This document shows, piece after piece, positions 40,071 to 47,100 of a stretch of DNA of 64,000 nucleotides. This DNA comes from Dehalococcoidia bacterium. Its GTDB lineage: Bacteria > Chloroflexota > Dehalococcoidia > Bin125. The notes beneath the pieces are model-generated. The model was given only the letters and a program-made list of their open reading frames with translations, was not told the origin of the DNA and ran no database searches. A program made the position numbers and the translations under genes. The stretch covers positions 416,001 through 480,000 of the forward strand of contig CAXXRD010000001.1 of NCBI GenBank assembly GCA_963663895.2. Reading direction: 5' to 3'. Positions within the stretch are counted from its first letter, which is position 1, and each line of letters begins with the position of its first letter.

Positions 40071-40217
40071 ATGACTGCTCTCACCGAAGCCGAAATCGAA
40101 GGGGCTGGCCTGGCTGCGGGGCCTGGGTCGGCGGACCGTCCACGGCCCTTCCGCTCGCGCCGGGCGTGTCGGGCGCGAGCGGAAGGGCTACGAGCCGTGG
40201 TCCTGGTGCAGAAGCCT
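40071..40217 (+). pseudogene. hsdR 5' relic 1 (decayed)
   Basis: MTALTEAEIEGA, a frameshift, then AWLRGLGRRTVHGP, then decayed similarity to [12 protein letters not shown]. Confidence 0.75.
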
Positions 40218-40246
40218 TGAATACAGAACATGCGTTCTTTTACGAT
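40217..40246 (+). promoter_or_regulatory. sigma70-type promoter overlapped by a LexA (SOS) box
   Basis: TTGAAT (40217-22), 18-nt spacer, TACGAT (40241-46). AGAACATGCGTTCT at 40225-40238 matches AGAAC-N4-GTTCT. Confidence 0.7.
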
Positions 40247-40369
40247 AGCAGGACAGAAGACAAAAGTTCGTACTCTCGCCACTGCATGTGAAACACTGCT
40301 GCCGCACAGCCGGCGTCAAGGAGGTGCGCGGACCGCAGAGCGCAAGTTAGACAGCGCGGGGCACGGCGT

Positions 40370-41062
40370 ATGACGACGACTCTGATAGACCCCTTGGCAT
40401 CCCCCGTCTTTGAGGGCGTCTACGACGTGCCAGAAGTCGCCCGCTATCTCAAAGCCGCGATCAACGGCGAACGGGCCTACCCGGTCAGTTCGGCCAAGCT
40501 GATCCGGTGGATTCGCCGCGGCGTCGCGTCGCCCGATCTCGCCGACGCCCACGGCCAGGACCTGCTGATCGCGTTCGAGGATGTCGTATCGATGCGGGTG
40601 ATCGCCGCCTTGCGCGCGGTAGGCGTCAAGTGGTCGGAGATCGACCGAACGGAGCGGTGGCTACGACAGGAGACGGGAGCCGAGCGCCCCTTCGCCACCG
40701 AGTCCCTTTGGGCCGGACAGGGACAGCTCTTCGTCGACTGGAAGCAGCGCCTGCTGTCGGCCAGCCGCCACGGTCAGCTGGCGCTCGGCTTGCTCCAGGA
40801 CTACCTCATCCCAATACACGGCCTCATGTTCAGCGAAACCACGCATATGGCGACCTCCTGGGAGCCGTTGGACCACGTTCTGCTAAAGCCGACGGTGCAG
40901 TTTGGGGCGCCCTGTATCAAGGGGACGCGCATACCGACGCGGACGATCGCGGGGATGATCGACGCCGGCGACCCCGTGGAGTGGGTGGCTGGCGTATATA
41001 AACTCTCGCCGGCCGAGGTGAAGGCAGCCCGTGACTGGGAATCCGCTCTCCGAGCCGCCTAA
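40370..41062 (+). CDS. HTH + DUF433 antitoxin (VapB45-like)
   Basis: YDVPEVARYL...LIRWIR, FEDVV, and C-terminal PTVQFGAPCIKGTRIPT DUF433 motif. Confidence 0.82.
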   Translation: MTTTLIDPLASPVFEGVYDVPEVARYLKAAINGERAYPVSSAKLIRWIRRGVASPDLADAHGQDLLIAFEDVVSMRVIAALRAVGVKWSEIDRTERWLRQETGAERPFATESLWAGQGQLFVDWKQRLLSASRHGQLALGLLQDYLIPIHGLMFSETTHMATSWEPLDHVLLKPTVQFGAPCIKGTRIPTRTIAGMIDAGDPVEWVAGVYKLSPAEVKAARDWESALRAA

Positions 41063-41459
41063 CCGACGGTTTCTGCTCGACGAATCGCTGGCGCCATCCG
41101 TTGCTCAGGCCCTGAAACTCGTCGGCTACGATTTCGTCGGCATTGAGGCCGTTCCCAGTGGCAAGGGCGCCCAAGATCCCGAGATCATCGATTGGTGCCG
41201 TGCGAACGGCGCGGTATGGGTCCACGCCGATGACCGAGCCAAAAGGCAGCACAAAGTTCAATTGCAAACGAGCGGAATCCGGACGTTGCGCATCCATCGT
41301 CCGCAAGGCCGCATGACGGCAAAAGAACAGCTTCGGATTCTCGCCTTCGTGCTGCCGCTGTTTCTCGAAAGGATCACCGAATCCCCAAGAGTGCGGAACT
41401 ATCGGGCAAGCGCCGCCAACCCAAGCGCGAAGCCTTCCCTGAGGGAAGAGAAGATATGA
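41031..41459 (+). CDS. PIN-like toxin (VapC45/DUF5615-like)
   Basis: FLLDESLA, GAQDPEIIDWC, WVHADD; overlaps the antitoxin stop. Confidence 0.78.
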   Translation: MTGNPLSEPPNRRFLLDESLAPSVAQALKLVGYDFVGIEAVPSGKGAQDPEIIDWCRANGAVWVHADDRAKRQHKVQLQTSGIRTLRIHRPQGRMTAKEQLRILAFVLPLFLERITESPRVRNYRASAANPSAKPSLREEKI

Positions 41460-43853: not shown

Positions 43854-43857
43854 GCGG

Positions 43858-44088
43858 CTACTCCCCGGGCCAGGCGCCCCGGCCGGCCCACTCGATCTCC
43901 TCGGTGGTCTGGGGGAACTTCGTGTAGCCCTCCCGGTACCGGCGGGCGATCTCCTGGGCCCGCTTCTCCGCGAGATAGGCGGCGGCGGCCTCGCGCAGCA
44001 CCGCCGAGCGGCCGCGCTCGCGCACCTCGGGCCGCTGGTCGAGCTGCTCCAGCAGATCCTCGTCGAACGTCACCTGTATCGCTTTCAT
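43858..44088 (-). CDS. Ribbon-helix-helix (CopG) antitoxin
   Basis: MKAIQVTFDEDLLEQLD...RSAVLREA...Y.EGY..P; directly upstream of mazF. Confidence 0.85.
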   Translation of the reverse strand: MKAIQVTFDEDLLEQLDQRPEVRERGRSAVLREAAAAYLAEKRAQEIARRYREGYTKFPQTTEEIEWAGRGAWPGE

Positions 44089-44171
44089 GGATATGAAGAT
44101 ACCACATGTAGAATAGACGCATCATGCGGTACCGGCGGGGCGGGCGGGACGCCGCTCCCTAGAATGCGCCC

Positions 44172-47100
44172 ATGCGCGATGCGGGAATCGATGAGGCGGC
44201 CGTCGAAGAGGCGGCGCTGGCCTGGCTGCGGGGCCTGGGCTGGCGCACCGTCCACGGCTCGGCGATCGCGCCCGACAGCCCCGGCGCGGAGCGGGACGGC
44301 TACGACGAGGTCGTGCTGGCGCGGCGGCTGCGGGACGCCCTGGCCGCGCTCAACCCCGACCTGCCCGCCGCCGCCCTGGAGGACGCCTTCCGCAAGCTGA
44401 CCCGCCCGGAAGGGCCGACGCTGGAGGCGCGCAACCGCGCCTTCCAGCGCATGCTGGCCGAGGGCGTGACGGTCGAGTACCGGACGGCAGACGGCGCCCT
44501 GCGCGGGGCGCAGGCCTGGGCGATCGCCTTCGATAATCCAGACGCCAACGACTGGCTGGCGGTCAACCAATTCACCGTCAGCGAGCAGGAGCACGTCCGC
44601 CGCCCCGACATCGTGCTGTTCGTCAACGGGCTGCCGCTGGGGCTGATCGAGCTCAAGAACCCGGCCGACGAGGAGGCCACCATCTGGACGGCCTGGCAGC
44701 AGCTCCAGACCTACCAGGCCGAGCTGCCGGCGCTGTTCTCCCTCAACGCGCTGCTGATCGTCTCCGACGGCGCCCAGGCGCGCCTCGGCACCCTCACCGC
44801 CGGGCGGGAGTGGTTCAAGCCCTGGCGCACCATCGGCGGGGAGGAACCGGCGGACCCCCGCCTGCCCGAGCTGCAGGTGATGCTGGAGGGCGTCTGCGCG
44901 CCCGCGCGCTTCTTGGCCCTGGTGCGCGACTTCACCGTCTTCGAGGACGACGGCAGCGGCGCCCTGGCCAAGAAGATGGCCGGCTACCACCAGTTCCACG
45001 CCGTGCGGGCCGCGGTGGCCGAGACGCTGCGCGCGGCCGCCCTGCAGCGGGCAGCCGCAGGGGTGGCCGAGAGCGAGGGGCGCTACGAGTCGGGCCGCAA
45101 GCCGGGCGGCGATCCCGGCGACCGCCGCATCGGCGTCGTCTGGCACACCCAGGGCTCGGGCAAGAGCCTGACCATGGCCTTCTACGCCGGGGCGATCATC
45201 CGCGAGCCGGCGATGGCGAACCCGACCGTGGTCGTGCTCACCGACCGCAACGACCTGGACGACCAGCTCTTCGGCACCTTCTCCCGCTGCCGGGACCTCC
45301 TGCGCCAGCCGCCGGTCCAGGCGGCCAGCCGGGCCGATCTGCGCCGCAAGCTGGCGGTGGAGTCGGGCGGCGTGGTCTTCACCACGATCCAGAAGTTCCT
45401 GCCGGAGGAGAAGGGCGACCGCCATCCCCTGCTGTCGGAGCGCCGCAACATCGTCGTGATCGCCGACGAGGCGCACCGCAGCCAGTACGACTTCATCGAC
45501 GGCTTCGCCGCCCACATGCGCGACGCCCTGCCCGGCGCCTCCTTCGTGGGCTTCACGGGCACGCCCGTCGAGCTGCAGGACGCCAACACCCGCGCCGTCT
45601 TCGGCGACTACATCAGCGTCTACGACATCCAGCGCGCGGTGGATGACGGGGCCACGGTGCCGATCTACTACGAGAGCCGCCTGGCCCGGCTGACATTGGA
45701 CGAGCGCGAGCGGCCGCGCATCGACCCGCAGTTCGAGGAGGCGACCGAAGGCGAGGAGGTGGCGCGCAAGGAGCGGCTCAAGACGAAGTGGGCGCAGCTG
45801 GAAGCGATCGTGGGCGCCGAGAAGCGGCTGCGGCTGGTGGCCCGCGACATCGTCGATCACTTCGAGGGGCGCGGGGAGGCGCTGGAGGGCAAGGCGATGG
45901 TGGTCTGCATGAGCCGCCGCATCTGCGTCGAGCTCTACCGCGAGCTGGTGCGGCTGCGCCCGGACTGGCACCAAGACGGCGACGACGAGGGCGCGATCAA
46001 GGTCGTCATGACCGGCTCCGCCTCCGATCCGCCGGAGTGGCAGGAGCATTTCCGCAACAAGCCGCGGCGCGAGGCGCTGGCCCAGCGCTTCCGCGATCCG
46101 GCCGATCCGCTGCGGATCGTGCTGGTGCGGGATATGTGGCTCACCGGGTTCGACGCGCCCAGCCTGCACACCATGTACGTGGACAAGCCGATGCGGGGCC
46201 ACGGGCTGATGCAGGCGATCGCGCGGGTCAACCGGGTCTTCAAGGACAAGCCCGGCGGGCTGGTGGTGGACTACCTGGGGCTGGCCCACGAGCTGAAGCG
46301 CGCCCTCGCCACCTACACCGAGAGCGGCGGCAAAGGAGAAACCGCCCTGGACAAAGAGCAAGCGGTGGCGCTCATGCTGGAGAAACACGAGGTCTGCTGC
46401 GCCCTCTTCCACGGCCTCGATTGGAGCACATGGGTGAGCGGAACGCCGCAGGAACGGCTGAGCCTGCTGCCGGCGGCCCAGGAGCGGATTCTGGCGCAGG
46501 AGGACGGCAAGGAGCGCTGTTTGCAAGCCGTCCACGATCTCTCCAGGGCCTACGCCCTGGCCGTTCCCCACGAGGAGACCCGGCGCATCCGGGACGACGT
46601 CAGCTTCTTCCAGGCGGTGCGGGCGGCGCTGGCCAAGCGGGCCGCGGGCGAGGCCCGCCCCGAGGAGGATCTGGACCACGCCGTGCGCCAGATCATCTCG
46701 CGCGCGGTGGCCTCCGAGGGCGTGGTCGACATCTTCGCCGCGGCGGGGCTGGAGCGGCCGGACATTTCCGTGCTCTCCGACGAGTTCCTGGCCGAGGTGC
46801 GGGACATGCCCCATCGCAACCTGGCCGTGGAGCTGCTGCAGCGGCTGCTCAAGGGCGAGATCGCGGCGCGGCGCCGCAAGAACGTGGTGCAGGCCCGCTC
46901 CTTCGCCGAACTGCTGGAGCAGAGCCTGCGCCGCTATCAGAACCGGGCGGTCGAGGCGGCGCAGGTGATCGAGGAGCTGATCCACCTGGCCCGGGAGATG
47001 CGGGAGGCCAACGCGCGCGGCGAGCAGCTGGGACTGTCGGAGGACGAGCTCGCCTTCTACGACGCCTTGGAGACCAACGACAGCGCCGTGCAGGTCCTGG

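Follow-up and report, generated by a model that had tools for sequence, protein, structure and literature searches.

Relic hsdR starts between stacked modules point to integrase-free capture in a type I restriction-modification operon of a Dehalococcoidia bacterium

Genes nested inside type I restriction-modification (R-M) operons have been described several times. A section of PMC12707154 places PrrC within the EcoprrI type I operon, and part of PMC12255303 describes DarTG2 between hsdS and hsdR within an island of enteropathogenic Escherichia coli (EPEC), naming the site a potential recombination hotspot. Passages of PMC5499597 link PIN-like toxin-antitoxin (TA) genes to the type I subunits hsdM and hsdS, and report DUF433-PIN_10 and HTH-DUF955 (ImmA) plus DUF4411 as TA-like modules, the latter a three-component one. 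Embedding has also been used as a means of finding new defences ('guilt by embedding'; Payne et al. 2024, bioRxiv 10.1101/2024.01.29.577857). Here we analyze a type I operon in a stretch of 64,000 nt, hereafter the window, from a Dehalococcoidia bacterium (GTDB lineage Bacteria; Chloroflexota; Dehalococcoidia; Bin125; assembly GCA_963663895.2, contig CAXXRD010000001.1, positions 416,001 to 480,000 of the forward strand). Between its hsdS and hsdR genes lie four accessory modules with three fragments of the hsdR 5' end among them, and we argue that these fragments, called relics below, are probably scars left by the capture of modules through host recombination.

That defence genes embed in type I operons is known; what we add is the seams, namely the cut hsdR heads and, in other genomes, fusions of an hsdR head to an hsdS tail (head::tail seams). 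In our literature searches we did not find hsdR 5' relics between embedded cassettes, or head::tail seams, described. The words hsdR, recombination and DUF4411 and the stem truncat- are absent from the main text of Payne et al. 2024, and the supplements of PMC5499597 and of bioRxiv 10.1101/2024.01.29.577857 may list these cassettes. The 'hsdR relic' of PMC2610378 is a different thing, the C-terminal half of the gene beside an IS4 transposon.

Four modules and three hsdR heads

Positions are given in window numbering, position 1 being the first letter of the 64,000-nt stretch. We scanned the 14 open reading frames (ORFs) from hsdM to hsdR with Pfam and also ran the PADLOC models; taken together, they show the type I operon to be complete, with hsdM, hsdS and an intact hsdR. 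The latter (44172..47342, + strand) encodes 1056 aa in a single open frame in which Pfam predicts the nuclease domain HSDR_N (1.5e-44), the SF2 motor SWI2_SNF2 (1.4e-77), T1R_D3-like and the HindI-type C-terminal domain T1RH-like_C (5.7e-138). Its start, MRDAGIDE, is unusual and has two extra N-terminal residues, a form also found in homologues such as P0119 and L078. The interval between hsdS and hsdR is a 5.6-kb stack that reads hsdS, DUF2806 and CxxC-TM, relic 1, DUF433-PIN, relic 2, ImmA-DUF4411, relic 3, MazF-RHH, hsdR, and ORFs, sequence and Pfam matches all bear out the order and placing that the original prediction, made from the letters of this DNA, had given.

Relics 1 to 3 are hsdR starts. 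The clearest is relic 2 (41476..41674, + strand), 199 nt beginning MTSFTESEVEE that correspond to hsdR codons 1 to about 66 without an indel, within an open frame that extends to 41757 and matches HSDR_N (3.6e-7). From 41500 to 41674 it aligns ungapped with 44202..44376 in hsdR, the second copy of a 175-nt direct repeat on the same strand: 166/175 nt are identical, with a longest exact block of 73 nt. The repeat search gives 184 nt at 93%, and the ORF is 88% identical to HsdR residues 6-69 (E 1.7e-30). Relic 2 had been predicted to be an hsdR copy, as it is, with a count of 161/168 nt that the measured value replaces. Relic 1 (40071..40208, + strand; about 140 nt, beginning MTALTEAEIE) is decayed and ends near hsdR codon 49. 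Over 40101-40208 it shares 85/105 nt with hsdR 44213-44318, and because this alignment is gapped at three places the fragment is frameshifted; a protein search also recovers it (E 3.1e-4). Relic 3 (43495..43536, + strand) comprises the first 13 codons of an hsdR allele, MNGLSEAEVEEAS, as 39 nt plus a stop, and is too short to be significant by itself. Its peptide MNGLSEAEVEEA is, however, found unchanged as residues 1-12 of P0002, an intact homologue of HsdR with 1047 aa, which was the second-best of 8000 scored and is 91% identical to the window HsdR over the first 220 residues. At the DNA level relic 3 matches the head of relic 2 at 29/39 positions and that of relic 1 at 26/39. Its GTG start overlaps the DUF4411 stop (GTGA), which is the position of the hsdR start in many loci behind DUF4411, and its own stop shares CTAG with the mazF stop.

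Each relic begins close to the stop of the preceding gene, 13 nt behind it for relic 1, 16 nt for relic 2 and with a 4-nt overlap for relic 3. The three heads resemble one another at 26-29 of 39 nt and the present hsdR start at only 19-23 of 39, and they are cut at different points, near hsdR codons 49, 66 and 13. The original prediction had described just this arrangement, with relics starting within about 16 nt of the preceding stop, differing at the extreme N-terminus (pairwise identities between starts run from 19 to 29 of 39 nt) and ending at different places. In base composition, the first 24-39 nt of all four heads (G+C 0.50, 0.54, 0.59 and 0.67) are like the cassette upstream, and the part that follows in relics 1 and 2 and in hsdR has a G+C of 0.79-0.81; in relic 1 the change is from 0.50 in the first 30 nt to 0.79 in the remainder. 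This fits a foreign head, although the stretches are short and the indication is weak. Within relic 1 the inverted-repeat search found a perfect 18-bp hairpin (40144..40189, + strand) with a fold of -43.8 kcal/mol, compared with -19.9 and -22.9 kcal/mol for the same, imperfect site in hsdR and relic 2. Its central 26 nt are the reverse complement of the hsdR sequence (23/26 after reverse complementing), and it looks like a quasi-palindrome (template-switch) correction in sequence freed from selection.

The modules between the relics belong to unrelated families. Cassette 1 consists of a DUF2806 protein (38547..39560, + strand; Pfam DUF2806 2.7e-30) and a 128-aa CxxC protein with a C-terminal hydrophobic segment (39671..40057, + strand), an ORF that has no Pfam match. 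In cassette 2, a DUF433-domain protein that is a putative antitoxin (40370..41062, + strand; DUF433 7.9e-12) precedes a PIN-like nuclease and putative toxin (41031..41459, + strand; DUF5615 2.6e-6, PIN_10 6.3e-5). Cassette 3 pairs an HTH protein with an ImmA/IrrE (M78) metallopeptidase domain (41817..42971, + strand; Peptidase_M78 7.8e-17, HTH_31 7.2e-4), whose start was picked from homologues beginning at matching residues, with a DUF4411 PIN-like nuclease (42968..43498, + strand; DUF4411 6.1e-54). Cassette 4 lies in reverse, with a MazF/PemK toxin (43533..43853, - strand; PemK_toxin 2e-17) and a ribbon-helix-helix (RHH) antitoxin (43858..44088, - strand; RHH_1 2.1e-7). Three of the four modules thus pair families by Pfam as type II TA systems do: PemK_toxin with RHH_1, DUF433 with PIN_10/DUF5615, and HTH-Peptidase_M78 with DUF4411. 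We infer that all four are likely to be second-line phage defences; among the cassette proteins scanned with PADLOC, ImmA alone matched defence models (RmrA 5e-18, capP 2.2e-13) and the other 7 had no match.

Machinery for moving such cassettes was looked for in several ways. By Pfam, none of the 14 ORFs from hsdM to hsdR encodes an integrase or a transposase, and in particular no intI tyrosine integrase lies beside the array in this set. No Rfam match at E <= 0.1 falls in the array, and the repeat search returned no cassette-flanking or terminal inverted repeats beyond chance-like ones and no attC-type repeats. These results agree with the earlier statement that neither an integrase nor a transposase nor an attC-like site is visible. 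No sigma-70-like promoter was found, and there is 1 terminator-like site against 4.2 expected, a result that we take as uninformative.

The modules beside hsdR in other loci, and their seams

Each module has a natural pairing with hsdR. The fullest sample is for DUF4411, where a scan restricted to a single genome of each species recovered 80 loci from many phyla, with identities of 64-82%. An hsdR head directly adjoins DUF4411 in 34 of these loci; 20 of the heads are full-length, 3 run off the contig and 11 are short or broken. In another 8 of the 80, hsdR lies further downstream. The usual layout is hsdM-hsdS-ImmA-DUF4411-hsdR, in which the DUF4411 stop overlaps the hsdR start as TGATG or ATGA. 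Within the window's own genus no DUF4411 was found in G001 or G002, and the best match in the family, in G062, is 79% identical and broken. DUF433 with PIN stands directly upstream of hsdR in four genomes, L017, L018 and L019 (57-60% identity) and G200. Homologues of the cassette 1 proteins, both 47% identical, are followed by hsdR heads as well: that of CxxC-TM in G439 directly by an hsdR head relic, and that of DUF2806 in G298 by an hsdR head. In G110, MazF (72%) and its antitoxin (68%) are reversed as in the window, and the pair has an hsdR relic of 58 codons on one side and an intact hsdR on the other. DNA homology between the window and G110 (438/570) is confined to 43533-44107, from the mazF stop to 19 nt past the antitoxin start, and because it ends at the module borders, MazF-RHH must have entered an hsdR head at least twice.

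The DUF4411 loci include one, L075, that is labelled as a metagenome-assembled genome (MAG) of a Nitrosopumilaceae archaeon. It reads hsdM-HEPN-MNT::hsdS-ImmA-DUF4411-hsdR (MNT, minimal nucleotidyltransferase), its HsdR is 70% identical to the window's, and its hsdR begins MNQLSESNVEE, near to relic 3. Such likeness of the two HsdR proteins would indicate that the operon as a whole has recently crossed between domains. In another, L058, the stretch 4504-4847 behind DUF4411 holds a weak hsdR head and a fragment of ImmA (residues 345-383) before hsdR begins; here a tandem copy of the ImmA-DUF4411 unit may have collapsed.

Relic-separated stacks recur as well. For a sample of the phylum we used a profile of 20 hsdR heads on 401 genomes, a tally that includes the unpublished genome G311, and 100 of them had a head match. 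Six of these 100 (G000, G298, G110, G200, G235 and G439) carry a relic that shares its strand with a long hsdR frame and lies <=6 kb upstream of it, and by a count from the table about 25 further short frames hold orphan or broken heads. Because the relics in G110, G298, G439, G200 and G235 are 78-89% identical to their own hsdR, they are other alleles or old copies and not fresh duplications. Further stacks were found in the same-family relatives G028, G008 and G016, and relic-bearing ones in two unrelated MAG loci: L078, in the order hsdS, membrane protein, KwaB-like, Abi_C, relic, ImmA, DUF4411, hsdR, and L045, in the order relic, DUF6978-DUF1828, Phd-PIN pair, ImmA-DUF4411, hsdR. Between the relics of other arrays are genes for TIR, 8xMP, AAA_21, HicAB and UvrD-like proteins, which is typical defence-island content.

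Some of the same-family loci have taken other forms. G028 (L027, 6943-9807) and G008 (L140) each have, behind an AAA_13 ATPase, three units of about 983 nt with a DUF6978 + DUF1828 cassette, every unit ending in an hsdR head. The units have identical seams, are 90-100% alike at their ends and about 50-70% alike in their centres, and look like a diversifying paralogue array. In G016 (L141, 6900-8260) VapC comes first, and behind it lie a 64-codon head from another type of hsdR, an hsdS 3' end of about 100 codons, a second short hsdR head and a putative transposase gene; by eye this gene resembles an IS200/REP-associated transposase, and Pfam gives it no match at E <= 0.001. A decayed sister locus, L028 (3959-8014, from G034), has the start of hsdM fused to an hsdS fragment, and an internal deletion has fused the first ~35 codons of its hsdR to the last ~55.

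In two genomes the far side of the seam is recognizable as well. The relic ORF of L078 encodes hsdR residues 1-57 and then continues in frame with LLPKLISGELRVKDAEK. This is an hsdS tail of the form LLPxLVSGE, which precedes the next cassette and agrees at 57/62 nt with the tail of the resident hsdS, 2.4 kb upstream. The point of switching falls within 12-14 nt over which the codons for RLRDAL in hsdR and those for ALRDTL in hsdS are imperfectly homologous. G298 has such a head::tail fusion twice, RRLRDAL running into LPWLVSGE in one and RRLRNVL into LPQWVS in the other. In L073 an hsdS tail stump stands ahead of ImmA and a 12-codon hsdR head behind DUF4411. Head::tail seams at short homology thus exist in L078 and G298, and from these fusions and the layout of L073 it follows that the moving unit is hsdS tail-cassette-hsdR head.

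A probable route by host recombination and its rivals

We think it likely that the relics of the window are scars of integrase-free capture, in which host recombination anchored in a conserved flanking gene, here hsdR, has brought in the modules. In a donor type I locus a module would sit immediately upstream of hsdR, its stop often overlapping the hsdR start, and because of this adjacency it would travel together with the hsdR head. DNA from such a locus could recombine with the resident locus and add the module by means of two joins: a homologous crossover in the conserved flanking gene, and a second join, illegitimate or through short homology, that lands inside the resident hsdR head. A stack would form as the tail side joins the resident head and the other side recombines homologously, so that the cut head would persist as a relic and hsdR would be made complete again downstream of it. 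All of this would be the work of host recombination, with neither integrase nor transposase involved. The combination of one extended-homology crossover with one microhomology join fits the L078 and G298 seams. The seams of the window have no recognizable donor side, and since neither donor sequence nor an hsdS tail was found at them, they are illegitimate joins as far as visible. We infer the transfer route, the exact crossover points in the window genome and the order of events.

Two statements of the original prediction bear on this route, and each stands in part. It had taken the crossovers to be homologous in hsdR and illegitimate on the left; joins of that kind occur in L078 and G298, and for the window the donor side was not found. 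It had also derived each cassette from another hsd locus with an hsdR start of its own. Every cassette type does occur elsewhere upstream of hsdR or an hsdR head, but a matching N-terminus was found only for relic 3 (in P0002), and MazF-RHH in G110 precedes a different start.

Several observations weigh against capture by this route. In 38 of the 80 DUF4411 loci no hsdR is present, and the module therefore also travels by other routes. A 280-nt spacer and a different hsdR start follow MazF-RHH in G110, so that the present start MRDAGIDE is not shown to have arrived with this module, and none of the 11 metagenome loci with MazF relatives had an hsdR head, most of these loci being short (<2.4 kb). 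For 40209-40369 and for the seam stretch from relic 2 to ImmA (41675..41816, + strand) no fetched locus gave a significant donor match. The stretches 40195-40375, 41660-41830, 44080-44205 and 39991-40075, compared by blastn and tblastx with every fetched locus, gave chance-level matches only. A decayed hsdS tail within the array was considered and rejected: the best score of a profile of 35 tails was 5.4 bits (40269-40304), compared with a 95th percentile of 6.0 and a maximum of 7.3 in 200 local shuffles, and a scan for the hsdS-tail motif matched only the resident hsdS tail. In the phylum sample, 13 further loci with orphan or paired heads include none with an in-frame hsdS tail, so the head::tail seam is only one class of join. 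Finally, short-read contigs end at the exact repeat, and we depend on the assembly itself for the long-range order across relic 2 and hsdR.

This last point raises the question of whether the stack is an artefact in which strain variants of one hsd locus, each with a different cassette, were chained through their common hsdR 5' sequence. The genome is a metagenome-style assembly in 5 contigs, and another metagenome has a variant joint, described below. We checked the locus with short-read contigs of four runs, among them X4 and X5, two samples of one study. The segments 39600-41587, 42455-43648 and 43619/43623-44289 are covered without difference in both samples; 41615-42374 is covered without difference in X5, and 41615-42419 with 7 other letters in X4. 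From this coverage every unique seam is bridged (CxxC-relic 1-DUF433, PIN-relic 2, relic 2-ImmA, DUF4411-relic 3-mazF and RHH-hsdR, at an even depth of 5-11), all without difference in X5 and all but relic 2-ImmA in X4, and the contigs break only inside the exact repeat common to relic 2 and hsdR. Relics 1 and 3 are, moreover, too unlike hsdR to mislead an assembler, and the same architecture is present in the single-contig genomes G298, G110, G439 and G200. An artefact is hence scarcely credible to us, and the chimeric assembly that the original prediction had named as a possible refutation was not borne out, though these contigs cannot prove the order across the repeat.

The variant joint comes from X3, a run of another study labelled as a sponge metagenome, in which a 151-nt contig of depth 4 joins 41467 to 43526 and skips 2058 nt; 32 nt of the contig lie to one side of the joint, and the 119 nt to the other side contain one difference. 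This form is without relic 2, ImmA, DUF4411 and most of relic 3, so that the PIN gene region ends directly at the mazF 3' end. A deletion is our reading of the joint, since an hsdR start behind PIN is the arrangement found naturally, with an insertion as the alternative; in either case it is a structural variant in a close relative. Other joints were set aside: one in X4 from 40123 to 44212 has 21 letters on one side and falls within a 46-nt repeat, and those inside ImmA and inside hsdR (44219 to 44543 and 44443 to 44541) seem to come from genes of other organisms.

The remaining rivals accept the stack as real and differ from capture in how it grew. It is possible, if unlikely, that a circle left the same scars: a circle of cassette plus hsdR head would integrate by a single homologous crossover in the head (Campbell type) and so duplicate it. 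The circle itself would come from a donor that was already stacked, through recombination of a relic there with hsdR. The 175-nt repeat of relic 2 and hsdR, at 166/175 with its exact block of 73 nt, would suffice for RecA to mediate excision and re-integration, the heads differ over their first 24-30 nt and are alike in the rest, as a crossover just behind the start would give, and the units of G028 and G008 have identical seams. Yet a non-replicating circle would still need entry into a new cell, and the identity of 78-89% between relics and their own hsdR in five genomes fits two alleles as well as an old duplication. The exact block does make excision through the relic 2-hsdR repeat plausible, as had been predicted, but neither a deletion nor a circle junction between the two was seen in the contigs of the four runs, and contigs cannot show rare forms. 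The G028 and G008 arrays, with three ~983-nt DUF6978 + DUF1828 units of the same seam and with ends more alike (90-100%) than centres (about 50-70%), are also what would be expected of local tandem duplication, in which slippage or unequal sister exchange copies a unit of cassette and hsdR head, with no foreign heads, and the copies are later replaced or diverge. To the window we would apply this with little expectation that it is right, since its four cassettes are of unrelated families and different G+C, its seams lie at three different hsdR positions, and the extreme starts of its heads differ (19-29 of 39 nt), one of them being equal to a foreign allele. Insertion of a mobile element, be it an insertion sequence (IS), a transposon, an integron cassette or another site-specific system, would turn the hsdR pieces into target duplications. 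The cassettes are indeed compact and promiscuous, ImmA-DUF4411 having reached many phyla and a locus labelled as an archaeal MAG, and the G016 gene behind a relic has its by-eye resemblance to a transposase. We nevertheless hold this to be very improbable: the array lacks a transposase or integrase by Pfam, terminal inverted repeats and Rfam matches, the duplicated pieces measure 39, about 140 and about 199 nt in this array and reach about 690 nt in others, and the heads are diverged alleles. IS ends and target duplications had been offered as a refutation in the original prediction, and no transposase, terminal repeats or duplication of fixed length turned up.

If capture did build the stack, the order in which it happened is harder to read. 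The dating clues disagree: its three gaps, set beside the ungapped relic 2, suggest that relic 1 is the older seam, whereas the distal block from the hsdS 3' half to the CxxC gene has the most foreign G+C (0.47-0.53 vs about 0.70). A fragment anchored in hsdS, with its hsdR head joined illegitimately on the right, would bring in its cassette at the hsdS side, and the resulting structure would be the same as after growth at the hsdR end. The X3 variant means that the array also changes internally, whether by deletion or by insertion. Growth only at the hsdR end, with the array as a record of acquisition order as had been proposed, is therefore not established.

The upstream part of the operon has features of its own. 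The methyltransferase gene hsdM (34728..36521, + strand; Pfam N6_Mtase 4.7e-104, HsdM_N 2e-27; PADLOC MTase_I) probably has its true start downstream of 34728, because homology begins near residue 81. Between hsdM and hsdS lies a gene for a HEPN-like nucleotidyltransferase substrate-binding protein (36527..36961, + strand; NTase_sub_bind 3.5e-34), and hsdS itself is a single ORF with an N-terminal MNT domain fused to it (36954..38546, + strand; Methylase_S 1.1e-24, Polbeta 1.2e-9). Methylase_S matches in two stretches, and PADLOC Specificity_I (2e-91) spans residues 102-528. The HEPN-like gene thus adjoins an MNT domain that is in frame with hsdS (36527-38546), which seems to be a HEPN/MNT toxin-antitoxin pair built into the specificity subunit; the same layout of HEPN and MNT::hsdS is found in G298, and MNT::hsdS in G439. 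From about 37991 the 3' half of hsdS has a low G+C of 0.49. It belongs to a low-G+C block (37991-40100; 0.47-0.53 vs about 0.70) that takes in the second half of hsdS, DUF2806, the CxxC gene and the first 30 nt of relic 1, and whose composition suggests one foreign segment that would have swapped the target-recognition domain together with a cassette.

Relation to known systems

Why do defence genes so often embed in R-M systems? The preserved seams offer a concrete and testable mechanism for which host recombination is enough. With them it is explained why the first hsdR codons travel jointly with a cassette, and exchange across phyla is shown; they are also a simple signature by which cassettes could be catalogued and their captures put in order. 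It is tempting to go further, and we would give an even chance to the broader idea that type I R-M operons are general integrase-free capture platforms. On this idea the hsdS tail and the hsdR head would serve as anchors, including the recurrent short homology between hsdR RLRDAL and hsdS RDxLLP, defence modules would hop across phyla and even domains as tail-cassette-head units, and the relic seams would record each capture. If it is true, there would be a mechanistic reason for the embedding, and a sequence signature by which new defence cassettes could be found and their history reconstructed.

The closest known parallels to this locus are the embedded defence genes of type I operons, which it resembles in having genes nested between the hsdS and hsdR of a complete system. 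The papers on embedded genes describe content and not the route of addition, whereas the window stacks four modules and preserves the seams between them. Incomplete hsd gene copies beside an active one are also known from shufflons, the silent partial hsdS copies of phase-variable type I loci covered in part of PMC12707154. There, hsdS halves are shuffled by a dedicated recombinase and specificity changes; in this array the copies are non-functional hsdR heads, and there is neither a recombinase nor inverted-repeat sites. An ordered stack of small, unrelated, promoter-poor cassettes beside a fixed gene, with content that varies between relatives, calls integron arrays to mind. Integrons, however, have an intI tyrosine integrase, an attI site and attC inverted repeats that bound the cassettes. 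The array has no intI, attI or attC, its seams lie at variable positions, joining would be by homology in a flanking gene, and insertion at one end only is not demonstrated.

In mechanism the likeness is to processes in which foreign DNA enters with one homologous anchor and one microhomology join. Homology-facilitated illegitimate recombination, as de Vries and Wackernagel reportedly described it in 2002, works in this way, and the 'minimal mobile elements' of transformable bacteria attributed to Saunders and Snyder (2002) are said to be cassettes without mobility genes that are swapped between conserved flanking genes. The array would differ from both in that the anchor and the illegitimate target are the same gene, and a duplicated gene head therefore remains as a scar. 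A further difference lies in the microhomology of L078 and G298, which is recurrent and falls between conserved coding motifs, RLRDAL in hsdR and RDxLLP in hsdS.

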